Below are positions 24,874-61,637 of a DNA stretch of 64,000 nucleotides, piece after piece (positions within the stretch are counted from its first letter, which is position 1; every line of letters starts with the position of its first letter). The stretch lies in the IMG/VR virus record IMGVR_UViG_3300030606_000005; one strand, given 5' to 3'. The notes below the pieces were generated by a model, which was not told the origin of the DNA, did not search any database, and worked only from the letters and a program-made list of their open reading frames with translations. This DNA is from an uncultured virus (IMG/VR IMGVR_UViG_3300030606_000005). Taxonomy: Duplodnaviria; Heunggongvirae; Uroviricota; Caudoviricetes. The translations under genes and the position numbers were made by a program.

Positions 24874-25416
24874 TCAACGCAGGTCGAGGACCATGGCGTC
24901 GTACCGGGGCGAGTCCTCGAACGGCTGCATCTGACCGACCTTCCGGTAACCCCAGCTCTCGTAGAGAGCACGCACTTTGGGGTGTTCGCTGTCCACGAGC
25001 AGTGATGCACGGGCTTCCTGCCGCTGGCCCATGAGTTCGTCGTGGATGCCTCGGGCGATGCCCTTTCCGCGCCATGGCTGGCGGACCATGATTTCGCACA
25101 GGCCGAACGTGCCCTGCTCGCCGTAGTCCCGGACGCCGGGGCCGACAGGGTCTAGGATGTCGCGCCACTCCCGGGCGCTGTCGAGCCGCCCGTACGCGTA
25201 GCCGACCGGCTGGCCGTCGATCTCGCCTGCGACACATGCCCAGCTGGAGCCAGAAGCGTGGCCCGAGAGCCGTTCCTCGAAGCGCTCCACGGAGAAGAAC
25301 GGGTCTTGTGCGGCCTCCCGCGCGTACACCTCGGCGTACACGTCCACGAGCATGGAGCGGATCTGAGGCAGGTGTTCGCGCCGGTAATAGCTGAGCGTGA
25401 GCACATCTACCGTCAT
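24874..25416 (-). CDS. GNAT family N-acetyltransferase
   Basis: VGYAYG, EIMVRQPWRGKGIA acetyl-CoA motif, LYESWGY. Confidence 0.9.
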   Translation of the reverse strand: MTVDVLTLSYYRREHLPQIRSMLVDVYAEVYAREAAQDPFFSVERFEERLSGHASGSSWACVAGEIDGQPVGYAYGRLDSAREWRDILDPVGPGVRDYGEQGTFGLCEIMVRQPWRGKGIARGIHDELMGQRQEARASLLVDSEHPKVRALYESWGYRKVGQMQPFEDSPRYDAMVLDLR

Positions 25417-26690
25417 GTTGCCGCCTCCTGGTAGTGGTCTGCGAAGGTCCTTGCCTCTCGCGGAGCGCAGTCCAGCACATCGTCGTGGAACTGCGCCAGG
25501 TGCGCACTCCAGCGAGCGCTGCGTACCTCGGGAAGCAGGCCGAGGGCCTCGTGCCCGGATTCGAGGGCCCCGTCCGCCTCACCAGCCGCGAGAAGGTTCC
25601 TGGCCAGGCTGACATGGGTGGCGAATGCATTCCGGCGGAACTCGTCCGTCGCTATGAGCGCAAGCGCATCACGGTCGGCTTGAGCCGCCCGCGCGTAGTC
25701 CCCCAGGTTGAAGAAGCACAAGGCGGCCTGTCCGGCCATCTCATCGGGGCCGCAGAACGCCAGCCACGCGGGGGCCTGGCCGGACGCACGGTCGAGTTCC
25801 TGTTCGGCGCGGTGGAGGGACTGCGCGCACCGCCCCCTTTCCCCGTCGGCCGAATGCCCGAGTGCGACCCGCGAGTGCAGCAGCGCCGATAGGCGAGGGT
25901 CGCGCCGGCCTCGGGTGGCGTCCAGTGCCGCGCGAGCGACGGCGACCGCCTCGGCGCCGTGGCCGAGGTCGACCGCCTGCCGGGACAGGCTTGCCCAGAT
26001 GCGGGCCTGGAGCATGGGGTCACGTGCGAGGAGTGCGTAGCGAAGTGCGGTGTCCCACCGGCTGCGCGCCTGGTCGTGTCGGCCGGAGTCGTAGGCCAGC
26101 CATCCGGCTTCCTCGCATATTTCACCGAGGGCTTGGTGCAGCTGTGTCTGCACGCGTCCGCCGTAGGTGCAGTGCCGCATGGCGTGCTCGACGTGTTCGA
26201 CGTACCGTCCGGCGATGTCGGCTAGCTGTGCGCTTCCGTGCTGACTGTCCAGCTGGACGAGGTGCGCCTCGGCCTCGCGGATACGGACGATGTCGCTCAG
26301 GCCTAGGCGCCCCGACTCGGGCAGTGGGGGCAGGGCGATGAGGCTGCCGAGGCCGACGATGAACTTGCGGCGGAGCACGGGCGGGTCCTGAGGTGGTGCG
26401 GGTACTGACGTTCGCACGGTAACCCGGGGAGTGCGGCTGGCGGGAGGGCAGAAGCCTAACTCGCTGGCAGGGCGGCCGAATACGCTTTCCAGCGGAAGAC
26501 GACTGCGGGTTCTCGGCCAGGCGACCTTGCCCTTCAGCCAGAAGTTGACGAGCTGCACCGAGCAGTTGCCGGGGGCTCCCGTGAGCTGCTCGGCGGCGTC
26601 GTTGACCGCTTCGGCGAGCCCTTCCCGGGTGAACCCGTACTCGGTCATGAGCTGCCGGAGCGTGAGGTTCGGCTGGAGTTGATCGACCAT
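25413..26690 (-). CDS. XRE-HTH plus helical-repeat transcriptional regulator (NsdA-like family)
   Basis: ATG 26690 with GAGGGG RBS; N-terminal HTH, LDSQHGS and AGWLAYDSG motifs; contains TTA codon at 26459-26457. Confidence 0.8.
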   Translation of the reverse strand: MVDQLQPNLTLRQLMTEYGFTREGLAEAVNDAAEQLTGAPGNCSVQLVNFWLKGKVAWPRTRSRLPLESVFGRPASELGFCPPASRTPRVTVRTSVPAPPQDPPVLRRKFIVGLGSLIALPPLPESGRLGLSDIVRIREAEAHLVQLDSQHGSAQLADIAGRYVEHVEHAMRHCTYGGRVQTQLHQALGEICEEAGWLAYDSGRHDQARSRWDTALRYALLARDPMLQARIWASLSRQAVDLGHGAEAVAVARAALDATRGRRDPRLSALLHSRVALGHSADGERGRCAQSLHRAEQELDRASGQAPAWLAFCGPDEMAGQAALCFFNLGDYARAAQADRDALALIATDEFRRNAFATHVSLARNLLAAGEADGALESGHEALGLLPEVRSARWSAHLAQFHDDVLDCAPREARTFADHYQEAAT

Positions 26691-26870
26691 CAGTCCCCCT
26701 CGTGACGGCACCACCGTAGCGGCAGAAGTTTGCCCCTGCCGTGAAGTTACCCCTTCCGAACTTGTCTTTACCGGTTGGTGGTTGACGCGTGACGGTGGTT
26801 CCTCAGCGCAAGCCAAACCCCGGCACCGCTGACACGGCCCGGGGCGCGGCCGACTGCAAAGGAGTCGACA

Positions 26871-27158
26871 GTGAACCTTGTACCACGATTGCTCGAATGG
26901 GTGAGAACCCTCCTGTTCGGGGCGCTTGAATCCGGCCGCCTTGCTCTTGATGCGGACCAGGACGATGACCCGAGTGTGGCCCCGCCCTGTCCGTCGCCGG
27001 AGATGTGGGGAGCCATCCTCATCCATGCCCGACGCCGCAGGGCTCAGCGCCAACGGTTTGTGCCGGCGCCGGGCGCTGACTCGCCGGTGCGCGCCTACGC
27101 CAGTCCAGCGAACGGACAGGCGCGAGCGCTGGCCATGTCGGCGCAGGAGGCCCGGTGA
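26871..27158 (+). CDS. Hypothetical protein
   Basis: AAGGAG RBS; divergent from the regulator. Confidence 0.55.
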   Translation: MNLVPRLLEWVRTLLFGALESGRLALDADQDDDPSVAPPCPSPEMWGAILIHARRRRAQRQRFVPAPGADSPVRAYASPANGQARALAMSAQEAR

Positions 27159-27160
27159 CG

Positions 27161-27385
27161 ATGACCGCGTACAAGCCGAACCTCGGCGACACCGTCGAGG
27201 ACACCAGCGCCAACAAGGTCGGCAAGGTCATGGGCTTCGAGGGGCCGTACGTCCAGGTGCGGCCGATCGGCGGCGGCCTGGAGTGGGACGCGCATCCGGA
27301 CAACCTCCGGCCCGTCACCGGCACCGAGGCGCTGCGCTCCGCCGTCGCGGTGGCCAACGCCCGCTCGCGGGGTGAGTGCCCGTGA
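27161..27385 (+). CDS. Hypothetical protein
   Basis: VGKVMGFEGPYVQVRPIGGGLEW motif; RBS. Confidence 0.7.
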   Translation: MTAYKPNLGDTVEDTSANKVGKVMGFEGPYVQVRPIGGGLEWDAHPDNLRPVTGTEALRSAVAVANARSRGECP

Positions 27386-27750
27386 CGGCCAACACCTCCC
27401 TGCCGGTCGACGTCGAGACGATGCGCGCCAGCGCCAGTCGCCTGCTCGCACCCGACGCCGAAGCGCCTTCCGTGCAGGAACTGGAGACGCTGACGCTCAC
27501 GCTGAAGGGGCATCTGGCGCTCATCATCCCCGAGCTGGGGCGGGCTGCTTCAGGTCGGCGCGATGACGACGACATGCCCCGCGTGTGCGCCCGGATGGCC
27601 ATCGCGGAGACCTGCCGGAAGGTACGCATCGAGCCGCGCCCCGGCCTGAGTTCACACATCGCGTACGCGCGCCGTCTGTCCCGTTCCCTGAACGCGCTGT
27701 GCCGACACTACGAGATCTTGCACGACAAGAAGGCGGAGGCCTGCGAGTGA
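27382..27750 (+). CDS. DUF6415-like protein
   Basis: LPVDVETMRASA, LKGHLALIIPE, ARRLSRSLNALCRHYE. Confidence 0.65.
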   Translation: MTANTSLPVDVETMRASASRLLAPDAEAPSVQELETLTLTLKGHLALIIPELGRAASGRRDDDDMPRVCARMAIAETCRKVRIEPRPGLSSHIAYARRLSRSLNALCRHYEILHDKKAEACE

Positions 27751-27941
27751 GCGCGTCCAGGACCGCACAGGCTCCGACTCTGTCCGCCGAGTGCACGGTC
27801 GCGAAGCATCCCGACTACCCGGACATGCACGGCCGGTGCCGCCAGACCGAGGACATCCCTGTCCACCCCAGCGCGCCGCGCATCCTGCTCTGGCCCCGCT
27901 GCCGCTGCTCCTGCCACACGCAGGCCGTGAGCGCGTCGTGA
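27747..27941 (+). CDS. Small Cys/His-rich protein
   Basis: GTGA overlap; LSAEC...HGRC...RCRCSCH. Confidence 0.5.
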   Translation: MSASRTAQAPTLSAECTVAKHPDYPDMHGRCRQTEDIPVHPSAPRILLWPRCRCSCHTQAVSAS

Positions 27942-28073: not shown

Positions 28074-28578
28074 CCTCCGGCCGGTGCTCCGCAAGACGCC
28101 GACGGGAGGCGGCAGCCCGCCCTGCCGGTGTCCCGCAAGACACTGGTGGGGCGGGTGACAGCCCCACGATCAGCCCCGCTCGTCCGCCTCCCCCGCGGCG
28201 GACGAGCGGGGCGCTGTCACGAGCGCCGCGACATCTATGTCGAGCGCTGCGGCGATCCTCAGAAGGTGGCCGTATCGGGGGTCGCTCTCACCGCGCTCGA
28301 TGCGTTGGAGGGTGCGCCGGTCGATGCCGGTGATCTCGGCGAAGCGTTCCTGGGTGCAGTTGGCATAGAGCCGTAGATCGCGGATGCGTCCGCCCAGGTT
28401 GCGACGCTGTTCGGTGATCCATGTGGGGGCGTCGCTTGGCACTCGACAAAACTCGAATGTCCGTGATCACATGTCAGCGTCAGCCATGTCGCTTTTTGTG
28501 ATCTATGGCTGAGGGGTGAGTGAGCCCCGCCTGAGCGCCCTCCCCGCCGGTGTCCCGCAAGACGCTGGTGGGGAGGGC
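28074..28578. repeat. Three related hairpins with CCGCAA loop (28074-28109, 28116-28155, 28537-28578)
   Basis: Shared core ccggtg(t/c)(c/t)ccgcaagac; outer stems differ but remain paired. Confidence 0.75.
28170..28442 (-). CDS. XRE family HTH regulator
   Basis: TQERFAEITGIDRRTLQRIERGESDP. Confidence 0.88.
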   Translation of the reverse strand: MPSDAPTWITEQRRNLGGRIRDLRLYANCTQERFAEITGIDRRTLQRIERGESDPRYGHLLRIAAALDIDVAALVTAPRSSAAGEADERG

Positions 28579-28617
28579 TTCGTCGTTCCTGCGTCCCGCT
28601 GCCTGGTGTCCTTTAGA

Positions 28618-28647
28618 ACTAAGGTGCATCCATGGATGCGCCTTAGT
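28618..28647. other. Candidate attP core (30-bp near-perfect palindrome)
   Basis: actaaggtgcatcca|tggatgcgccttagt with one mismatch, directly upstream of the serine integrase. Confidence 0.5.
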
Positions 28648-28688
28648 CGTTACACTCTGTGTCGAGCAGTAGGCACGGAGGGGTGAGC

Positions 28689-30290: not shown

Positions 30291-31193
30291 GCGCGTCTCC
30301 TCGTCCGGTGGTGTGGCGGCCGTGATGCACGGGGACGGCTCGGCCGATGGCGTCGGCGGAAGGCTCTCCGGCTGGCCGGGCGGCGGCCTTTCCGACGGGG
30401 TGGCTGCCTCCGCCAGCCCCGGACCGTCTGCGGGAGAACCGTCAGGGTGCGGTGAGGCGATGTAGCTGGGAGGGGCCTCTTCGGTCGGCCCCGGTGCTCC
30501 GGCATCCTCCGTGTACCGGGTGCTGGGGCTGGCGACGGGGGTGGTGCTCCTGCTGGGCAGCGGTGGGGGGGAAGCCGGTGACGCGGCGGTAGGTGTAGTG
30601 CCGCTGTGTGCCGGATGTGGCGCAGGGAGCCAGGGATGCGGCTGGCCGGGCGGCGCTGCGGGTGCGGAGGGTTGTGGCCCGATGTGATCAGCCGTGCTGA
30701 TCCACGGGGTGATGGCCAGGGCTGTGACCGCCGTGCCGGTGACGGCGGTCCCGGCTATCGCGCTGACTAGGTGACTGCGGTGCATGGCGAGTGCCTCACG
30801 AGCCGCCGTGCCTGCGGTTGCCGCGATAGCGAGAGCCCCGCCGAGGTGCAGTCCGAGGTGCTTCTTGCGCCGGACTGGGCCCGGCCGGGGTGGGGGGGAG
30901 GGGGCAGGGCCGCCGCTGACGGCGACGGCTCGCCGGGGTAGTTCGTCGTCGGGTTCGGTGAGTAGGTGTCTCAGTGCTGTCACGTGGGCTCGCTGGGCGC
31001 GCATCTGCCTGTCGATCCCTGTGATCTGCCGCCTCAACTCGGCTATGTCGCCGAGCAGGCGCCGCAAGAACAGACCCTCAGTGATGATGATGACGCCGAG
31101 CGCGCTCGCGAAAATGACCATGGCCATTCCCATCCCCACTATGTGCGTGCGCGTCAGGCTCCATACATGTCGGTGAATGTACGGATCAGTCAT
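30273..31193 (-). CDS. Membrane protein with coiled coil and Pro-rich C-terminus
   Basis: N-terminal TM, coiled coil, second hydrophobic segment; downstream of repressor. Confidence 0.6.
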   Translation of the reverse strand: MTDPYIHRHVWSLTRTHIVGMGMAMVIFASALGVIIITEGLFLRRLLGDIAELRRQITGIDRQMRAQRAHVTALRHLLTEPDDELPRRAVAVSGGPAPSPPPRPGPVRRKKHLGLHLGGALAIAATAGTAAREALAMHRSHLVSAIAGTAVTGTAVTALAITPWISTADHIGPQPSAPAAPPGQPHPWLPAPHPAHSGTTPTAASPASPPPLPSRSTTPVASPSTRYTEDAGAPGPTEEAPPSYIASPHPDGSPADGPGLAEAATPSERPPPGQPESLPPTPSAEPSPCITAATPPDEETRLLSSG

Positions 31194-31271
31194 CTTGTAC
31201 CGGATGTGACTCGCGTCACCTCCACCCCGAAGGGTCGTGACTCAACCGTTACCAAGCTTTGGCCAGTGCAG

Positions 31272-31766
31272 TCATCCTGCGTGACGGGGGTGCTGTGGGC
31301 CGCTGGCCTTGCGTGTCCGACGCCGGACGGTGGCCTCGTAGTCGGCGGCGATCTCCCGCAGCAGCTCCGGGACGTCCTCTTCGTCGACGTCCTCCAGGGC
31401 GGCATCGATCATGCGGCGCACATGCGGCGGCGCCGTCCGCAGCGCCTCCGGGAGTGGCGGTGACTGCCGGTCCTGCTGGCGCTCCATCTCCCTGAGAATC
31501 TCCGCTGCTGCCGGGTTGTGCTCCTGCATCCTCTCGGCGCTCACGCCGACGGTCCGCGCCATCGCTGCAACGGTCGACGGCTTCCCGGGCACGTCGACGC
31601 GCTTCGCGCCGGCCCCCCGGTAGCCGGCCTCGACGTGCCGCCAGCTGGATCCGCTGAACTTGAAGGGCATGCGCGCGGCGGCTGTCTCGGGGCTGATGCC
31701 TTGCGCTTCGCGGGCCAGCTTGATCAGTGCCCCGTGACCCGGCGGGCCGTGTTCCCGGTCTGCCAT
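31272..31766 (-). CDS. Putative immunity repressor (XRE-like HTH)
   Basis: LIKLAREAQGISPETAAAR...SWRHVEAG; divergent from the Cro-like gene. Confidence 0.75.
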   Translation of the reverse strand: MADREHGPPGHGALIKLAREAQGISPETAAARMPFKFSGSSWRHVEAGYRGAGAKRVDVPGKPSTVAAMARTVGVSAERMQEHNPAAAEILREMERQQDRQSPPLPEALRTAPPHVRRMIDAALEDVDEEDVPELLREIAADYEATVRRRTRKASGPQHPRHAG

Positions 31767-31921: not shown

Positions 31922-32164
31922 ATGAACGAAGACCCGAAGAGCTTCCGCCGTCGGCGGGTCGAAGCCGGTCTGAGCCTCACGGACCTTGCGAAGCAGGTAG
32001 GGGTCAGTACGAGCCACCTCTCCGACGTCGAGAACGGACGGGCGGGCTTCTCCCCGAAGAACCTCAAGAAGATCGCCGACGCACTCGGCTGCACCATCCG
32101 TGACCTCCTGCTCCCCGACCCGGAGGACGAACCCGACACCACGGCCTCACGGAGCGCGGCCTGA
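31922..32164 (+). CDS. Cro-like XRE HTH protein
   Basis: GLSLTDLAKQVGVSTSHLSDVENG. Confidence 0.9.
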   Translation: MNEDPKSFRRRRVEAGLSLTDLAKQVGVSTSHLSDVENGRAGFSPKNLKKIADALGCTIRDLLLPDPEDEPDTTASRSAA

Positions 32165-43027: not shown

Positions 43028-43473
43028 TCGTCTACCTGTTCCTGCTGGCCGGTGCCGCCGGTACGGAGGCCGCCGCGTACTACGCGCTCCGTGGCCGTGG
43101 CGTACACCGGTACGTCGCCCCCCGCCCGATGCTGCGCCTTGAGGCCGCCCACAGCACGGCTATCGCCGACGAGCTGGCCTGCAAACTGATCGGCCTGGCC
43201 AGCGAGTACGACGCCGTGGCCGCCGAGCGCGACGCCCTGAAGGCCGCGCTGGAGAAGGCCGGGCTGCGCATCGCCGACCAGGAAGAGCAGCTACGCGCCT
43301 TCGACTTGCTGTGCGCCGAGAACACGCAGCTGCGCGCCGACCTCGCCAACGCCCGCGCCATGCGTCAGCTGACGGCCGGCCCCCGCCCGGCCGACGACGC
43401 GAGCGCCCTGCCGGACGACGTCCAGGAGTTCGTCGACCAGACCGCCACCACCTGGCGCGCGGAGGTGTCGTGA
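43024..43473 (+). CDS. Coiled-coil protein with N-terminal hydrophobic segment
   Basis: GTGA overlap. Confidence 0.55.
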   Translation: MIVYLFLLAGAAGTEAAAYYALRGRGVHRYVAPRPMLRLEAAHSTAIADELACKLIGLASEYDAVAAERDALKAALEKAGLRIADQEEQLRAFDLLCAENTQLRADLANARAMRQLTAGPRPADDASALPDDVQEFVDQTATTWRAEVS

Positions 43474-44429
43474 TGCAGGAGTACTACCGCGACGATCAGG
43501 TCACGCTGCTCCTCGGCGACGCCCTCGAACAGCTCCGCACTCTGCCCGACGGCTCCGTCGACTGCGTCGTCACCAGCCCGCCCTACTACGGACTCCGCGA
43601 CTACGGCACGCCCGGCCAGTACGGACTGGAGCCGACGCCTGCGGCCTACGTCGAGACGATGCGCGCCCTGTTCGCCGAGGCGCGCCGTGTCCTCGCCGAC
43701 GACGGGACGCTGTGGCTCAACCTCGGCGACAGCTACGCCAGCGGCGGCCGCACCAGCTATGACACCCGCGGCGGCAATACGCGGGCCAACGGCTACGCGG
43801 CGCAGCGCGCGCCGTCCGAGCTGCCGGGCAAGAACCTCCTCGGCGTTCCGTGGCGTACCGCGTTCGCTCTCCAGGACGACGGCTGGATCCTCCGCAACGA
43901 GATCATTTGGCACAAGACCAACGCCATGCCGGAGAGCATCAAGGACCGGCTGTCGACTCGGCACGAACACCTGTTCCTGTTCGCCAAGGCATCGAGGTAC
44001 CGCTTCGATCTCGACGCGATTCGCGAGCCGCACACCATGCGGCCCCAGCGCAGGCCTCGAGGTCACAAGGAACGGCAGAAGCTCGGCGTCCTCCCGGCGC
44101 AGACCTGGTCCACATCGGAGCGAGACGAGCCCGGAGTCGACGGCCACCCGCTCGGCCGGAACCCCGGCGATGTGTGGTCCATCCCGACCCGCCCCTACCC
44201 GGCCGCGCACTTCGCGGTGTTCCCGATCGATATCCCGCTCCGCTGCATCAAGGCCGGATGCCGACCCGGCGGAACCGTCCTCGACCCGTTCTCCGGCAGC
44301 GGCACCACCGGCGCTGCAGCCCGCCAGCTCGGCCGGAAGTACGTGGGCATCGACCTCAACCCCGCGTACCACGACCTCGCCAAGGAGCGGTTCACGCAAG
44401 GAGTCCTCGACTTCGACACCGCGAGCTGA
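43473..44429 (+). CDS. Orphan N4-cytosine/N6-adenine DNA methyltransferase (beta class)
   Basis: VTSPPY before VLDPFSGSGTT. Confidence 0.93.
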   Translation: MQEYYRDDQVTLLLGDALEQLRTLPDGSVDCVVTSPPYYGLRDYGTPGQYGLEPTPAAYVETMRALFAEARRVLADDGTLWLNLGDSYASGGRTSYDTRGGNTRANGYAAQRAPSELPGKNLLGVPWRTAFALQDDGWILRNEIIWHKTNAMPESIKDRLSTRHEHLFLFAKASRYRFDLDAIREPHTMRPQRRPRGHKERQKLGVLPAQTWSTSERDEPGVDGHPLGRNPGDVWSIPTRPYPAAHFAVFPIDIPLRCIKAGCRPGGTVLDPFSGSGTTGAAARQLGRKYVGIDLNPAYHDLAKERFTQGVLDFDTAS

Positions 44430-45739: not shown

Positions 45740-46423
45740 ATGAGCAACTACACCGGGCAGGTCCCCGACACCGCGGCCCGCCCCCTGGACTGGATGGACC
45801 GTATGGCCTGCCGGGACAAGCGGGAGCTGTTCGACGACCCGACACGCGAGCACGAGGCGCGCACTGTGTGCATCAACGACTGCCCCGTACGCACGCAGTG
45901 CCTCGCTCACGTCAAGCGGCTGGAGGACGGCGCTTCCCGGGCCCGGCGGGACGGTGTTGTCGCCGGGCTCACCCACAGGGAGCGGTGGCGCTGCGATGCG
46001 GCGGCGTACCGCTGCAAGGACGACGCGCCCGCGCTGGACTTCACCGGCGACCCGCCGCGCTGCGGCACGCACATCGCGCTGCTCAAGCACCTGTGGCTGG
46101 ACGAGCCGATCGACTCCAAGTGCTGGAGCGGCGAGGTGCACCGCGACCACGAGAGCCGGTCCCGGCGAGAGCACACCAGCCCCATGCCCCAGCCTGAGCC
46201 TGAGCCGGTCATCGAGCGGAAGCCTCCCGTCCAGCTGGTCACGAAGGCGAAGCCGCCCGTGCGCGGCGACAGCCCCCACGAGCGACGGATCTACGCCCTG
46301 TGGTCGTCCGGCCTGAGTGACCTGGACATCGCCCGCCGCATGGCCGTCAGCGTGCCCTCCGTGCAGCGGGTGCGCGACTGGCTCGGCCTGCTCGCCAACC
46401 TGCACGCACGGAGGGCGTCATGA
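45740..46423 (+). CDS. WhiB-family regulator with C-terminal HTH
   Basis: W...MAC, VCINDCPVRTQC, GVVAGLT..ER; C-terminal GLSDLDIARRMAVS. Confidence 0.88.
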   Translation: MSNYTGQVPDTAARPLDWMDRMACRDKRELFDDPTREHEARTVCINDCPVRTQCLAHVKRLEDGASRARRDGVVAGLTHRERWRCDAAAYRCKDDAPALDFTGDPPRCGTHIALLKHLWLDEPIDSKCWSGEVHRDHESRSRREHTSPMPQPEPEPVIERKPPVQLVTKAKPPVRGDSPHERRIYALWSSGLSDLDIARRMAVSVPSVQRVRDWLGLLANLHARRAS

Positions 46424-48064: not shown

Positions 48065-49575
48065 CCAGACACCTGACCGCGCACCCGCACCGCTCCGGCA
48101 TGGTCCTCACCGGCGCCATCGCCCTCACCCTCGCCGCCGGATGGGCAGCCCACCACGGCATCCAGGCCGCCCGATACGGCACCGACACCGGCAGCCGCCT
48201 CGCCGCCGTGTGGTCCGTGACGTTCCTGCTGCTCCTCACCCAGACACTCATGTACCACCTGGAGCGCACCCGTCGGCCTTCCCCACGGGCACGCCGCCAG
48301 CTCGACGCACTGCACGTCGCGGTGCTCATACCGGTCTACAACGAGGACCCCGGATATCTGCGGCTCGGCCTTCAGTCGATGCTCGCCCAGACCCGGCGCC
48401 CGGACTCGGTGCACGTCGTCGATGACGGGTCGACGAGCGGCGACTATGCCGCGGTGCGCGCCTGGTGGATCCGGGCGGCGGCCACGGCCGGGATCGCGAC
48501 GACGTGGCAGCGCACCGCGAACGCGGGCAAGCGGCACGCGCAGGCCGCAGCGGTCCGGGTCAGCCCGGACGCGGACGTCTACATCACGGTCGACTCCGAC
48601 TCCTGCCTCGATCCGAACGCGCTGGAAGAGATCCTGCTGCCGCTCGCCCGCGCCCGGGTGCAGTCCGTCGCAGGGATAGTCCTCGCGACGAACCACCGGA
48701 CCAACCTCCTCACCCGGATCACGGACCTGTGGTTCGTCACCGGGCAGCTCACCGACCGCTCCGCCCTCTCCGCGATGGGCAGCGTGCTGGTCAACTCCGG
48801 CCCGCTCGCCGCCTACCGGGCCCCGGTCGTACGCGACAACCTCGACAGCTATCTGAACGAGCGGTTCATGGGCAGGCCCGTGATGTTCTCCGACGACAGC
48901 CTGCTGACCCTGTACGCGCTGCTGCGCGGCCGGACCGTGCAGCAACCGTCCGCCGTGGTGTTCACCGCGCTGCCCGAGAAGACGTCCCACTTCCTGCGCA
49001 TGTACCTGCGCTGGATGCGCGGCTCCACCATCCGCTCCCTGTGGCGCATGCGCTACCTGCCCGTCACAGGGTGGGCGTACTGGGCTCACCTGCTCCGCTG
49101 GTTCCAAGTCGCCCTGTCCACCGCCGTGCTGGGCTGGCTGCTGGTCGTCGAGCCCGCCGTGTACGGGCGCACTCCGCCCGCGAGCTTCTTGATCGTGCCG
49201 TTCCTGATCGGCTGGGCGCAGGCCCTCCGCTACCTCGGCATCATCCGCAGCGACGAACGCATCCGCGCCCGGCTCGTCACCTGGCTGCTCATGCCGCTCG
49301 CCGTCGTCGGCTCATGGACCGTGCTCCGGGCGATGCGCTGGTACGGCATGGCGACCTGCGCCCGCACCGGCTGGGGCACCCGCCAGAACGGCGCCGAAGT
49401 CGCCCTGGACGCCCGGACGCCCGAGGACACGGCCGTGCCTCTGCCGGACGACGACACCGTCCGCATGCGCATCCCCGTCGCGAAGCTGCTCGACCCGGAC
49501 ACCGAGACCACCCTCACCCTGCCCATCCCACACCAGCGCACCGCCGCGCCTCAGCACGAAGGAAGCACCCGATGA
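48061..49575 (+). CDS. Processive GT2 glycosyltransferase (HasA/NodC-like)
   Basis: IPVYNED, DDGS, GKRHAQ, DSD, SDD, YLRW; N- and C-terminal TMs. Confidence 0.88.
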   Translation: MTRHLTAHPHRSGMVLTGAIALTLAAGWAAHHGIQAARYGTDTGSRLAAVWSVTFLLLLTQTLMYHLERTRRPSPRARRQLDALHVAVLIPVYNEDPGYLRLGLQSMLAQTRRPDSVHVVDDGSTSGDYAAVRAWWIRAAATAGIATTWQRTANAGKRHAQAAAVRVSPDADVYITVDSDSCLDPNALEEILLPLARARVQSVAGIVLATNHRTNLLTRITDLWFVTGQLTDRSALSAMGSVLVNSGPLAAYRAPVVRDNLDSYLNERFMGRPVMFSDDSLLTLYALLRGRTVQQPSAVVFTALPEKTSHFLRMYLRWMRGSTIRSLWRMRYLPVTGWAYWAHLLRWFQVALSTAVLGWLLVVEPAVYGRTPPASFLIVPFLIGWAQALRYLGIIRSDERIRARLVTWLLMPLAVVGSWTVLRAMRWYGMATCARTGWGTRQNGAEVALDARTPEDTAVPLPDDDTVRMRIPVAKLLDPDTETTLTLPIPHQRTAAPQHEGSTR

Positions 49576-52059: not shown

Positions 52060-52629
52060 GTGGCGAACACTCAGTGGAACGGCGAACCCTGTGCGGCGCG
52101 GCGCATCACCGCCATCGTCGCCGACAACGACGCCTTCCCCGGGTACTGGGCCCGTCACCTGGTCGGCACGCGCCGCGACGTCGTCGAAGTGACCTACGGC
52201 GGCAGCACCTTCTACCTCGACGACGAGGTGGGCGAAGGCTGGCACAAGGTCACTCACGGCGGATCACCGCGCTGGGCGCACAGCAACATCACCATCCAGC
52301 CGGACAGCATCCAGCCCCGTGGCGACCGCAAGGCCGACCCGGACATGCCCTGCCCGCACGAGAACTTCGACGCCTTCGTGGAAGTCAACCGGGTCACCGC
52401 GAGCGACAACGACCCGACGGCGGTCGGTTACCACGCCGACGCCAAGGTCAGCTGCTACGACTGCGGCGAGCCGTTCCGCTGGACCGGCGTGAAGGCCGGC
52501 ATGTCCCAGGGCCGTCCGATGTGCAGCGTCGACGAGACCGAGCTGCGCGCGCCCCTGCGCCCGGCGAGCGCGGACCCCGACTTCGGACTCGGACTGCCCG
52601 GCTTCTCCGTCCGGTACAGGGAGGGCTGA
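52060..52629 (+). CDS. Hypothetical protein (two domains)
   Basis: AAGGAG RBS; CPHENF, CYDCGEPF. Confidence 0.6.
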   Translation: MANTQWNGEPCAARRITAIVADNDAFPGYWARHLVGTRRDVVEVTYGGSTFYLDDEVGEGWHKVTHGGSPRWAHSNITIQPDSIQPRGDRKADPDMPCPHENFDAFVEVNRVTASDNDPTAVGYHADAKVSCYDCGEPFRWTGVKAGMSQGRPMCSVDETELRAPLRPASADPDFGLGLPGFSVRYREG

Positions 52630-53810
52630 TGGACCGCGTCAACCCGGTGGACGACCGCACGTTCACCACGCCCCTCATCAAGGGACTCCAGCGGCGGATC
52701 GACCTGCTCGCCGAGACGATCCCCGGCGACGACGCCTACCGGATCGCCGCAGCCTGGGTGTACACGACACTGCTGGTCGCGTGGTGCGAGGACCACGGCC
52801 TCATCGAGACCCGGCTGCGAGCCGGCGCACAGGACCGGCGCAAGGCGCACCTCGATGCGGGCGGGAGGATGCTCGGCTGGCTGGGCTGGTCGGCCGCCGC
52901 ACTCACCGTGCACCCCTCCACCGCGTGCCTGCTGGACCCCCGCTACAACCCGATCACGAAGGGCGCCCCCACCGAGCAGGCCGCCCGCGCGCTCGTCGAC
53001 TGGTGGACCGACGAAGCCCCCGACCTCGCCTACCCCACGGGCAAGGGGCCCGCGTCCATCACCGGCTGGCTGGCCGGAGACATGCTCCAACTCGTCACCG
53101 ACGAACGCCGCCTCGCCAACGCCCTGTGCCAGACCCCCTGGTGGATCGCCGACTTCCTCCTCGACCGCACCCTCGCCCCCGCCATCGGCGCCTTCCCCGG
53201 CCAGCTGCTGCGGGTCATCGACCCCGCCTGCGGCACCGGACACCTCCTCGTCTGGGCACTCATAGGCCTCTACCACTGGTACCGCAGCGACCGCCCCGGG
53301 CACCCCGCGATGGATCCCCGCCGGGCCATCAGGCGGGCATTGGCGGGACTGCACGGCGTGGAACTCGACCCGCTCACCGCCGCCGTCGCACGCCTGCGCC
53401 TCACCGTCACCGCCGGCGCCCTCCTCGCAGCAGACGGCGCACTCCCCACCCCGCTGCGCCTGCACCAGATCCCCGCCGGCCTGCGGCCCCGGGTCGCCAT
53501 CGGCAACGCGCTCCTCGCCGGACTCGACGACCCGTGCCCGCCCGGCACGATCCTCGACGACACCGCCGACTACCCCGGAATCCTCACCCGCGGCACCTAC
53601 CACGCCGTCGTCGCCAACCCCCCGTACATCACGGTCAAGGACCCGGCCGTGAGCAAGGCGATCAAGGCCGCCTACTTCGCGGCCCACGGCAAGTACAGCC
53701 TGTCGGTGCCCTTCGCCCAGCTCACCTTCGACCTCGCTATCCGTGGCGCCCCGGACGGAGAACCCCTCGCACCGCCAGAACAGCTCGGCCTGTTCGCCAC
53801 CCCGGCATGA
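52629..53810 (+). CDS. N6-adenine methyltransferase, truncated PglX (BREX-2)-like
   Basis: IDPACGTGHLL then ANPPYITVKD (gamma order); 393 aa. Confidence 0.85.
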   Translation: MDRVNPVDDRTFTTPLIKGLQRRIDLLAETIPGDDAYRIAAAWVYTTLLVAWCEDHGLIETRLRAGAQDRRKAHLDAGGRMLGWLGWSAAALTVHPSTACLLDPRYNPITKGAPTEQAARALVDWWTDEAPDLAYPTGKGPASITGWLAGDMLQLVTDERRLANALCQTPWWIADFLLDRTLAPAIGAFPGQLLRVIDPACGTGHLLVWALIGLYHWYRSDRPGHPAMDPRRAIRRALAGLHGVELDPLTAAVARLRLTVTAGALLAADGALPTPLRLHQIPAGLRPRVAIGNALLAGLDDPCPPGTILDDTADYPGILTRGTYHAVVANPPYITVKDPAVSKAIKAAYFAAHGKYSLSVPFAQLTFDLAIRGAPDGEPLAPPEQLGLFATPA

Positions 53811-53816
53811 CCGCCT

Positions 53817-53891
53817 GCCCGGGTGGCGGAACAGGCAGACGCAGCCGCCTTAAAAGCGGATCAGTTGCGGGTTCGAATCCCGTCCCGGGCA
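53817..53891 (+). tRNA. tRNA-Leu(UAA)-like, short variable loop
   Basis: GCCCGGG/CCCGGGC acceptor, Leu-type D-loop, CT-TAA-AA loop (TAA 53851-53853), GGTTCGAATCC, discriminator A. Confidence 0.82.
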
Positions 53892-53925
53892 CGTCAACCA
53901 GCCACGCACCAAGGAGTTCCAGCAC

Positions 53926-54189: not shown

Positions 54190-54407
54190 TCGCCGTTCGC
54201 CGCATCCTCAACCGGGCCATCGCGCACGCGGTGCTGCTCGGCCGCCACCACCGCACGGCCGTCGTCGGCGGCTACCACTGGCGCTACTGCTCCCACCGTT
54301 CCCATTGGCTCCGGCTGCCGTGCTGGCGCTGGTTCATCCACGACGGCTACTGCCACCACCACAACGAGACCTGCTGGCTCAACTGCCCGGAGCGCCCTCT
54401 TGACTAA
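54186..54407 (+). CDS. His/Cys/Trp-rich small protein
   Basis: ATGA overlap. Confidence 0.5.
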   Translation: MIAVRRILNRAIAHAVLLGRHHRTAVVGGYHWRYCSHRSHWLRLPCWRWFIHDGYCHHHNETCWLNCPERPLD

Positions 54408-56698: not shown

Positions 56699-57438
56699 CC
56701 GCAGACACGCCCGTCGCCCACGGCTACACCGTGCGCGACCTCGAACACTTCGCCCGGCTCGTCCTGCGCATGGACCGCTGGTACATCGCTGGAGACATTG
56801 ATGAGCGGTACGACGCCGTGTGGTTCGGCATCACCGAGTGCCTGCTCACCGCCGATGAGCCGCCGACCCGGCGGGAGCTGCTGAACGCGGGCACCGCGGC
56901 CTCCGACGCCCGGGTCAGGGACGACATGCGCACGCACGGCCGGTGCACGCAGAACTTCGGCCAGCCGATGCCCCGCTTCCACGCCTACTGGAATCCGGCC
57001 AACCCTCCGTCGCCGGAACACCGTGTCGTCGAGCGTCTCGCCGTACAGCAGATCTGGCCGCTGCTCCAGCCCCGCCAGCGGCAGGCTCTCGCAGCGCTCG
57101 CCACCACCGGCGACTACGACAAGGCCGCCGCCGCGCTCGGCATCACCAAGGGGACCTTCGGCGTGCTCATCTCCACTGGCCGCCGCCGCTTCTACGCCTG
57201 GTGGCACGAGCACGAAATGCCCTCGCGTCAGTGGCGCACAGACCGGCGGGTTCGTTCCAGGGACGGCCGCGACCACCTCGGACGACAGCGGCTCACCGCA
57301 GCGCAGGTCGACGCCTACCGGCAGCGCCGCGACGCCGGCGAACCCGTGAAGGCTCTGGCCGCTGAAGCAGGAATAGCGACCGGCACCATGTACCAGCTAC
57401 TCAAGGGCGCGTCCAAGCCTGCGCAGGTGATGACGTGA
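56695..57438 (+). CDS. Sigma-factor-like/HTH DNA-binding protein
   Basis: LQPRQRQAL..YDKAAAALGI and a second C-terminal HTH. Confidence 0.6.
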   Translation: MTADTPVAHGYTVRDLEHFARLVLRMDRWYIAGDIDERYDAVWFGITECLLTADEPPTRRELLNAGTAASDARVRDDMRTHGRCTQNFGQPMPRFHAYWNPANPPSPEHRVVERLAVQQIWPLLQPRQRQALAALATTGDYDKAAAALGITKGTFGVLISTGRRRFYAWWHEHEMPSRQWRTDRRVRSRDGRDHLGRQRLTAAQVDAYRQRRDAGEPVKALAAEAGIATGTMYQLLKGASKPAQVMT

Positions 57439-58679
57439 GCAGCAGCACTCTGGAGGCACTCGCCGCCGAAGCCCCGGGCCCCGACGGGCACCGGCAGATC
57501 ATGCGCGTGGCCGTCAACGCCGTCGCCGCCGCGCGTGGCATGCCTGCGCCGTGGCCCATGGACATTCCCGGTGATACGGCCGAGCGCGTTGTGAAGCTGC
57601 TGGCCGACCTCGCAGACCTCAGCCAGTGGGGTGCTGCGGAACTCGGCGAGCTGCGCGAGCAACTGCTCGCGACCGAGGACCGCAGCGCGTCGGGCGTCTG
57701 GTACACGCCAGCCGAGGTCGCCCGGCCACTGACCCACGCCGCCCTGGGCGAGATCACCGACCTGCACCTGGACGACGACCCCGTCGACGTCCTCAACGTC
57801 TCGGTCCTGGACCCGGCGTGCGGCTGCGGAGTGTTCCTCATCGCCGCCGCACGCATCCTCGCCTCCGCCTACGTCGGCCTGCTGTACGGCACGCAGGATC
57901 CCGCCCCGCTCACTGTTCAGGCCGTCATGGCCGACGTCATGCGCTGCTGCGTGTACGGCATCGACACCGACCCGGTCGCCGTCGACCTCGCCAAGGCCAT
58001 GTGCTGGCTGGAGACCAGCGGCTTCGCCCCCATCGACTGGCTCGACGACAACATCGTCGTCGGCAACGCCCTCGCAGGGGACATCCCTCCGGCGCTGACC
58101 GGCCGGCTCAGCACGGCCAGCCCGCTGGCGATCGTGGGCAACCCGCCCTACAAAGACAAAGCCAAGGGCGCCGCCCCATGGATCGAAGCCCGCCGTCCCC
58201 ACCGGCTGAAGGACCGTTCCCCCGACGAACTCTGGCGCCCGTCCTTGGACGAGTTCCGCACCCCCGGCCAGGGCCGGTTCGAGTACACGCTGTCCAACCT
58301 GTACGTGTACTTCTGGCGCTGGGCCCTGTGGCGCGTCTTCGAAACCCGCATGAACGCCGGGGTGATCGCGTTCCTCACCCCGAGCGCCTGGCTGAAGAGC
58401 GAGGCATTCAATGGGATGCGCGGCGCCATGCGCGGGGCCGCCGACCGGATCCTCATCGTCGACCTGACACCCGAGGGCAAAGCGCCGCCCACCAAGACGC
58501 GCATCTTCCCGGGCGTCACCCTTCCCCTCTGTGCGGCAGTGCTCGCCCGGCGCGGAGGCCCACGACCGGACGACATGGCCCCCGCACACATCGCCACCGT
58601 TTCGGGCAGCCGCGAGGACAAATTCCGGCAGCTCGAACGGCTCCTCGGCGCTTCAAGCCCGACATGGGGCGCCTCGTGA
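57435..58679 (+). CDS. N6-adenine methyltransferase, Type ISP-like catalytic core
   Basis: GVWYTP, VLDPACGCGVFL, GNPPY, NLYVYFWRWA. Confidence 0.85.
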   Translation: MSSSTLEALAAEAPGPDGHRQIMRVAVNAVAAARGMPAPWPMDIPGDTAERVVKLLADLADLSQWGAAELGELREQLLATEDRSASGVWYTPAEVARPLTHAALGEITDLHLDDDPVDVLNVSVLDPACGCGVFLIAAARILASAYVGLLYGTQDPAPLTVQAVMADVMRCCVYGIDTDPVAVDLAKAMCWLETSGFAPIDWLDDNIVVGNALAGDIPPALTGRLSTASPLAIVGNPPYKDKAKGAAPWIEARRPHRLKDRSPDELWRPSLDEFRTPGQGRFEYTLSNLYVYFWRWALWRVFETRMNAGVIAFLTPSAWLKSEAFNGMRGAMRGAADRILIVDLTPEGKAPPTKTRIFPGVTLPLCAAVLARRGGPRPDDMAPAHIATVSGSREDKFRQLERLLGASSPTWGAS

Positions 58680-60149: not shown

Positions 60150-60225
60150 GGGCCTGTAGCTCAGGAGGCAGAGCGAGGGATTTAAACCCCAGTGCGCGCC
60201 GGTTCGACCCCGGCCGGGCCCACCA
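60150..60225 (+). tRNA. tRNA-like gene with degenerate anticodon arm (TAA or TTA), encoded CCA
   Basis: 76 nt; intact acceptor, D and T arms; anticodon arm AGGGATTTAAACCCCAG poorly paired. Confidence 0.7.
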
Positions 60226-61561: not shown

Positions 61562-61637
61562 GCGCCCGTGGCCCAACCGGTAGAGGCAGCGCCTTATAAG
61601 CGTCGAGCTGCGAGTTCGAATCTCGTCGGGCGTACCA
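61562..61637 (+). tRNA. tRNA with TAT anticodon (Ile, reads AUA), encoded CCA
   Basis: GCGCCCG/CGGGCGT acceptor, CT-TAT-AA loop (61595-61597), 4-bp anticodon stem, GTTCGAATC, ACCA. Confidence 0.8.

Follow-up and report, generated by a model that had tools for sequence, protein, structure and literature searches.

The regulator-GNAT cassette and its setting

The stretch of DNA analysed here (64,000 nt, referred to as the window) covers most of a temperate actinophage with 70% GC, while about 8.7 kb of the 72,699-nt source sequence lie outside it. By Pfam and PHROG, its genes include those for a terminase, portal, capsid, tape measure, endolysin and serine integrase as well as HTH genes. Judging from the closest homologues of the regulator described below, which sit in Streptomyces-like genomes, the host would be a streptomycete. 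The features on which this work centres are the following.

25413..26690, minus strand: long isoform of the regulator, 425 aa, HTH and TPR (NF053720, PHROG 10886, AlphaFold2)
26457..26459, minus strand: TTA (Leu) codon 78 of the regulator, context GAG TTA GGC
26386..26389, minus strand: AGGA, core of a ribosome-binding site 7 nt ahead of the internal GTG and weak in the window copy
26376..26378, minus strand: candidate internal start GTG, codon 105, two codons before RRKF, conserved in the family
25413..26378, minus strand: predicted short isoform, 321 aa, TPR without HTH and without TTA
24874..25416, minus strand: GNAT acetyltransferase, 180 aa, TTA-free (Pfam PF00583)
26691..27160, no strand: divergent intergenic region (gap in the gene call), likely with promoters and operator
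27161..27941, plus strand: divergent small genes 27161-27385, 27376-27750 (DUF6415) and 27747-27941 (gene call, Pfam)
53817..53892, plus strand: phage tRNA with anticodon UAA, Leu-type D arm and A73, without a long variable arm

The GNAT gene overlaps the regulator stop, as the preliminary description had it, by 4 nt (ATGA). A GNAT-like partner is encoded by 59 of the 61 downstream ORFs recovered from 70 loci examined, with the same -4 overlap in 42 of the 61. On the other side of the regulator, a promoter scan of the cassette found no sigma-70-like consensus. DUF6415 recurs in the equivalent place beside plasmid and chromosomal homologues, and the divergent small genes are likely to be the rest of the cassette and its regulatory target. 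TTA-bearing regulator cassettes are also present in other temperate phages (L075 21612-22411, L076 21941-22791, L074 21671-22183, L305 3524-3919, L310 3808-4272), whose few TTA codons lie in the divergent genes instead of, or besides, the regulator.

Elsewhere in the window, the early region holds three DNA methyltransferase-like genes, a family 2 glycosyltransferase gene and a WhiB-like gene (43473-44429, 52629-53810, 57435-58679, 48100-49575, 45740-46423). An imperfect direct repeat of ∼40 nt (about 28115-28155 and 28535-28578) lies on either side of a small HTH gene (28170-28442). Between integrase and repressor there are 981 nt without a called gene (30291-31271); a 306-codon minus-strand ORF within them has no Pfam or PHROG match. 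Two HTH genes (31272-31766 and 31922-32164) fit the role of the phage immunity repressor by position. The regulator belongs to a mobile cassette of host type and is not the immunity repressor.

Identity, predicted fold and spread of the regulator

With 296.7 bits against NCBIfam NF053720 (cut-off 75), the regulator is a member of the NsdA family of TPR-like regulators, and it also matches PHROG 10886. It is no orthologue of NsdA or NsdB themselves, as it fails the equivalog models NF050130 (59.4 vs 830 bits) and NF050135 (40.2 vs 700 bits). The AlphaFold2 model of the long form (mean pLDDT 91.4) consists of an XRE-like HTH domain (residues ∼9-78), a disordered linker (86-106) and a TPR solenoid (131-424). 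Fold searches with this model matched TPR proteins, Rap, NprR and PlcR among them, and among 55 family rows Pfam detected HTH_3 in 8 and TPR_2 in 25 (E <= 0.05).

The three closest homologues have chromosomal genes as neighbours, yet the family is also represented on plasmids (167 records) and phages (10 records), and a close member was present in 68 of 201 sampled Streptomycetaceae genomes. In several phages, the regulator sits between lysis genes and integrase, as it does in the window. By sequence, it is thus a mobile host-type gene of the NsdA family, found within a regulator-GNAT cassette that is widespread on Streptomyces chromosomes, plasmids and phages. One member (L005 10001-10192) is broken by a stop after ∼62 codons and still contains a TTA; in another case (L002 7452-8027), part of the GNAT region is present a second time beside a homologue.

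A single in-frame TTA codon in the window

The preliminary description had reported a TTA at codon 78 of the regulator, had seen no second in-frame TTA by manual scan, and had proposed a computational codon count. The codon is present in the minus-strand ORF 25413-26690 as described, and the count over the called genes of the window (self-trained call, 99 genes, 19,618 codons) returned this one TTA. Tracing every TTA trinucleotide of either strand (64 in all) again showed codon 78 to be the only one in frame in a called gene. The others are off-frame or antisense, or fall into tRNA loops, intergenic DNA, stretches upstream of called starts or tiny uncalled ORFs, and the tracing revealed no convincing hidden TTA-bearing gene in the window. 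The tiny intergenic ORFs are two in number and contain two in-frame TTA codons each: 26741-26785 (plus strand, 14 codons), which lies in the divergent promoter region, and 28550-28672 (plus strand, 40 codons), which ends 17 nt before the integrase start. Both probably arose by chance in AT-richer DNA. The TTA site of the regulator is identical in a contig of run X1, which is possibly the source of the window sequence, and in a 151-nt contig from a different sample (run X4), which ends 7 nt past the TTA.

A single TTA per phage is ordinary. With the same crude gene caller, 16 other actinophage records had 0-6 TTA codons each, and section 3.1 of PMC10732093 puts the share of Streptomyces phage genes that carry TTA at 1.91%. 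Besides, the suggestion in the preliminary description to look for conservation of the codon in homologues led to a negative answer, since the closest ones have CTG (88% identity), CTT (74%) and ATC (73%) at codon 78. In two of these three, TTA is found at another codon (38 or 36), and the third (74% identical) is without an upstream TTA. Across the family alignment, the column of codon 78 reads TTA in 10 of 63 rows, the window counted. What is above chance is the placement of TTA throughout the family, not codon 78 itself. In the window, the codon belongs to the final helix of the N-terminal HTH domain (model helix 75-78), 27 codons upstream of the internal start.

A conserved candidate start codon within the regulator gene

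The main feature of the locus, overlooked in the preliminary description, is this probable internal start. It is positioned at the end of the disordered linker of the model, where family members share the motif (V/M/L)-x-R-R-x-F and, behind it, a hydrophobic stretch. The first alignment was built from 72 loci, which were reduced to 62 homologues plus the window by dropping 4 duplicates, 5 loci without an N-terminal match and 1 broken gene; 10 viral homologues were then added and 3 rows without the motif (2 NsdA-like, 1 GNAT-type) omitted, leaving 70 rows. The GNAT-type member L029 has no start-type residue at the internal site. In the 70 rows, the codon at the site is GTG in 61, ATG in 4, TTG in 4 and CTG in 1, i.e. 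GTG, ATG or TTG in 69, and never GTC, GTA or GTT; the share of GTG among the other valines is 36%. A ribosome-binding site precedes the codon in 53 of the 55 rows with ATG or GTG, compared with 43 of 557 other internal ATG or GTG codons.

This first search required V, M or L at the site; its repeat on fresh homologues fixed RRxF only and allowed the start 2-3 codons before it. In this fresh set (n = 44, with 40 taken down a list of 90 matches plus 4 others, and seven of the rows forming one close group), a start codon was found in 44 of 44 and a ribosome-binding site in 41 of 44. In the window, the calculated duplex energy is -4.0 kcal/mol at the internal site vs -10.7 at the main start. The GenBank annotation of the 88% identical homologue is exactly the 321-aa short form. 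Two proteins are probably made from the one reading frame, and we infer from the conserved signature that the internal GTG is used in vivo. In several core NsdA-family paralogues (L258-L286), an RR motif is likewise closely preceded by a Met or Val codon (about codon 107-147), for which the ribosome-binding site is weak or absent in most, and the internal start may predate the GNAT-linked subfamily.

TTA codons concentrate upstream of the internal start

TTA is found in 38 of the 63 rows of the first alignment, with clusters at columns 11, 25, 67 and 78. Its distribution over the gene is highly uneven: in the 70 rows, 51 of 594 leucine codons before the internal start are TTA vs 13 of 2,509 after it, and in the fresh set 35 of 386 vs 1 of 1,465 (33 vs 1 of the 44 genes), although the rows are related, so that Fisher P values make the evidence look more independent than it is. 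Upstream, TTA makes up 6-14% of leucines in each 25-codon bin with enough leucines, and the density steps down at the start: the 25 codons ahead of it have TTA at 11 of 78 leucines, the 25 codons behind it at 0 of 183. The downstream TTA codons of the first set (0.5% of leucines) also exceed the background.

Upstream TTA codons are carried by 40 of the 70 members of the first set and 33 of the 44 fresh ones, vs 6 of 357 background genes. The latter were drawn from 24 genomic stretches after removal of one broken family member; 9 contain a TTA, 6 of them in the first 104 codons, and this rate agrees with the 2.86% given in section 3.1 of PMC10732093. TTA is biased to gene starts generally in Streptomyces, as stated in PMC4255298, and in our background genes this bias is about 5-fold. 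The excess in the family is specific to the reading frame, with 51 upstream TTA in frame vs 14 and 2 in the other frames, and TTT, ATA, ATT and TAT are not enriched upstream; these frame and codon controls rule out AT richness or an internal promoter as its cause. Among 29 other NsdA-family paralogues from three genomes, only 2 have an early TTA, and the core paralogues are mostly without an N-terminal TTA and without a strong internal site.

The upstream TTA occupies at least 12 different columns, and sister rows, placed by a quick version of the family tree, often differ in its position or presence, which suggests that the codon was regained rather than inherited once. With 30 of the 70 and 11 of the 44 members lacking an upstream TTA, the gate appears dispensable. 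As far as sequence comparison goes, it is the placement of TTA above the internal start that exceeds chance in this regulator family.

These data divide the earlier proposal that the regulator-GNAT pair is bldA-gated. For the regulator it is supported, in that the family keeps TTA under codon-level selection, which makes dependence on the host bldA tRNA likely. The GNAT gene, in contrast, is TTA-free, starts behind a strong ribosome-binding site of its own and probably stands outside the gate; the 61 downstream ORFs contain only one TTA, in a non-GNAT ORF.

A probable isoform switch set by bldA

UUA is read by a single tRNA, the product of bldA, which is required for development and not for growth, according to PMC4255298. 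We lean towards reading the TTA as an isoform-ratio switch, a probable bldA-set device in a known regulator family, in which bldA would gate only the long, DNA-binding form and leave the short form and the GNAT protein to escape. The long form (HTH and TPR), starting at 26690, would have to be translated through the TTA, while the short form (TPR only) would start at the internal GTG below it. In young mycelium, where the bldA tRNA is scarce, the long form would be throttled with short form and GNAT still being made, and the ratio of long to short would rise as the tRNA accumulates. The internal start below the TTA would also keep ribosomes arriving at the shared regulator stop and GNAT start. 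Such a switch would be timed by host development, would not require the phage tRNA and would most likely act on the divergent small genes. The internal-start signature, the TTA partition and the domain layout were established by comparison; that both isoforms are produced, that bldA limits the long one and that the short one dilutes the DNA-binding dimers, as well as the target itself, is what we infer.

The short form could act through dimerisation, diluting the DNA-binding dimers. A modelled dimer of long and short form scored 0.81 vs 0.00 for the best control, with at least 69% of contacts in agreement between runs and a partner pLDDT of at least 83; the mark applied was attained for 116 of 157 solved pairs and for 2 of 215 mismatched ones. 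The modelled interface (residues 171-257) is contained in both forms. Modelling thus supports, rather than proves, mixed dimers with one HTH, and if mixed dimers do carry a single HTH, the short form would be an anti-regulator. The result may, on the other hand, reflect a generic TPR homodimer, and it is silent on amounts in the cell.

Alternative readings and the phage tRNA(UAA)

The motif at the internal start resembles a twin-arginine signal, so that the short isoform might, as a tentative alternative, be a Tat substrate that is exported or membrane-tethered, with the long form as the bldA-gated cytoplasmic regulator; an exported short form might even take the long form with it as a folded partner. 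Both arginines are present without exception in the 55 aligned rows, and at least 13 uncharged residues follow RRxF in 60 of the 70 rows (15 follow RRKF in the window). The segment lies outside the confident fold of the model, the Pfam TAT_signal matches 7 of 55 rows (E up to 0.05), and some members are named Tat pathway or twin-arginine proteins in RefSeq. Yet only one of 20 short forms passes the cut-off of TIGR01409, which the short form of the window does not match at all. An A-x-A cleavage motif is present in 24 of the 70 rows and absent from the window short form, and only 2-3 residues precede the arginines. Export or tethering and an anti-regulator role do not exclude each other. In a combined form, likewise possible but doubtful, a widespread Streptomyces regulator subfamily would use the bldA codon for setting the ratio between a gated DNA-binding form and an ungated, dimerising short form with a twin-arginine signal, rather than for switching a gene on. 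If this were true, the short form could neutralise the regulator or take it to the Tat machinery for as long as the bldA tRNA has not accumulated, and the cassette would serve temperate phages as a ready sensor of the developmental state of the host.

Rather unlikely, in our estimation, is ordinary 5′-biased bldA control of one protein, with the internal start as an unused relic of a fusion between an HTH and a TPR gene. PMC4255298 and PMC10327506 document that TTA is biased towards gene starts and regulators, and the weak internal ribosome-binding site in the window would suit this explanation. An unused start would, however, be expected to drift to GTC, and none of the 114 rows has GTC, GTA or GTT at the site despite only ∼30% identity between the proteins; nor would a mere 5′ bias sit easily with a TTA density that holds up to the internal start and then falls at once.

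The preliminary description went further in proposing that the regulator-GNAT pair, gated by bldA in the lysogen, is released in lytic growth by the phage's own tRNA(UAA), which we now regard as improbable. The tRNA folds into a cloverleaf, is a tRNA-Leu derivative (Rfam 55 bits) and lies on the early-gene strand. It shares the genome with a regulator that has the only TTA in the called genes of the window and, if charged with leucine, would decode this TTA irrespective of the function for which it was selected. Its charging is uncertain because it lacks the long variable arm of the host bldA tRNA; the tRNA-Leu(UAA) of four probed host genomes has this arm. No close match to the tRNA was found among isolated phages, but short-variable-arm tRNA(UAA) genes occur in six high-GC viral records (L080, L083, L084, L086, L087, L225). 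L082 and L228 have a long-arm tRNA(UAA) with a similar core, and the discriminator base varies (A, G, T) among the records that resemble the window tRNA. A broad tRNA(UAA) pattern scan, used for structural comparison only, yielded mostly ordinary long-arm tRNA-Leu of unrelated phages (80 of 119 loci examined).

The co-occurrence of tRNA and TTA speaks against such a release. Among 17 other phage records with an intact regulator N-terminus (five isolated phages carry distant members of 25-26% identity), the regulator contains TTA in 10, in which no tRNA(UAA) was found; 2 combine a tRNA(UAA) with a regulator free of TTA, and the remaining 5 show neither. Of the 10 TTA-bearing records, 6 are complete or at least 97% complete, 4 are less than 90% complete and two are near twins. 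These small numbers give a Fisher P of 0.53 with the window and 0.15 without it. The family regulator was found in none of the six records with the window-type tRNA, by a search that recovered its controls. Two subfamily alignments served for the viral scan, the whole-family alignment being too divergent for it. Of seven records with tRNA(UAA), three lack TTA in their called genes. Overall, there are 6 TTA in 130,024 codons with tRNA(UAA) vs 18 in 149,628 without, a comparison in which the caller missed some regulator TTAs in the latter group. In addition, TTA regulators are mostly chromosomal, with the closest homologues lying among chromosomal genes. The pairing in the window thus looks incidental. 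Two further tRNA genes on the plus strand have the anticodons UUA (60150-60225; ochre stop UAA) and UAU (61562-61637; Ile AUA), so that all three anticodons consist of A and U only and their cognate codons are very rare in the window (TTA 1, ATA 11, TAA stops 3). Of the three TAA stops, those at 54407 and 59870 are no more than 600 nt from a tRNA gene, and the window tRNAs may be decoys or rare-codon helpers.

That the TTA is a chance codon in a poorly adapted gene of low GC3, as the regulator GC3 of 0.80, its 3 of 21 CTA and 2 of 11 ATA codons of the window and the rarer upstream TTA in members with GC3 >0.86 (4 of 15) might suggest, is very improbable and already largely refuted by the TTA partition, the frame control and the fresh set, the more so as TTA outnumbers CTA upstream (51:14) with the reverse downstream (13:42) and in the background, the excess is frame-specific, and early TTA occurs in just 2 of 52 background genes with GC3 <0.86, one of these a broken family member.

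Comparison with known systems

In Streptomyces, a TTA codon is usually taken as an on/off gate of the whole gene. The window regulator resembles members of the bldA/TTA regulon (adpA and others), as described in PMC4255298, in that a rare UUA in a regulator is read by one developmentally important tRNA. It differs from adpA, where the TTA keeps one position between two domains and controls the protein as a whole, whereas in the window family it floats over at least 12 columns, tends to lie above the internal start and would gate one isoform.

A possible precedent for nested products is the sporulation gene known as ORF1590 in S. griseus and SCO4114 in its orthologues. A study from the 1990s reportedly proposed a long product with the HTH and a nested short one, the latter undetected in vegetative growth, and a twin-arginine-like short form is not known for it. 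PMC3372375 refers to S. griseus ORF1590 as a sporulation-associated protein, and Table 2 of PMC4255298 lists a TTA in SCO4114 orthologues of 9 of 14 genomes. ORF1590/SCO4114 is one core chromosomal gene, whereas the window regulator belongs to a mobile, GNAT-linked family.

NsdA and NsdB, TPR regulators of secondary metabolism according to PMC7160387, share with the window protein the N-terminal HTH and the TPR part, above the curated cut-off of their family. Unlike these two, it comes from a subfamily that is mobile and linked to GNAT genes, and in which the internal-start signature is strong and TTA lies upstream. The RRNPP regulators (Rap, NprR, PlcR) have the same HTH-TPR layout and a similar fold, yet the likeness is one of architecture only: Rap of phage phi105 aligns to the model with Z 18.6 (rmsd 4.6, 261 aligned), NprR with Z 15.9 (rmsd 5.7, 275 aligned) and PlcR with Z 14.0 (rmsd 9.9, 272 aligned), at 8-14% identity, eukaryotic TPR proteins score equally high, and no gene for a signalling peptide came to light. 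The phage Hau3 terminase offers a parallel on the phage side, as its UUA was proposed to sense the bldA state of the host; there, the codon triggers bypassing in an essential lytic gene (PMC10732093), unlike the in-frame codon in an accessory, host-type regulator described here. In the supplement of the same paper, some UUA clusters among 'xre' rows could belong to this regulator family, although the rows do not identify them.

TTA codons in regulators, in SCO4114 and in phage Hau3 are known already, as reported in PMC4255298, PMC10327506 and PMC10732093; for this regulator family, a literature search that covered few subscription journals found no account of an internal start or a TTA partition. 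Annotations that pick the long form, the short form or a Tat substrate may each be half right. While poor positional conservation has made most TTA codons look unimportant, what is kept here, across more than 100 homologues, is the side of the internal start on which the codon lies, and this rule gives a reason for 5′-located TTA codons in one family.
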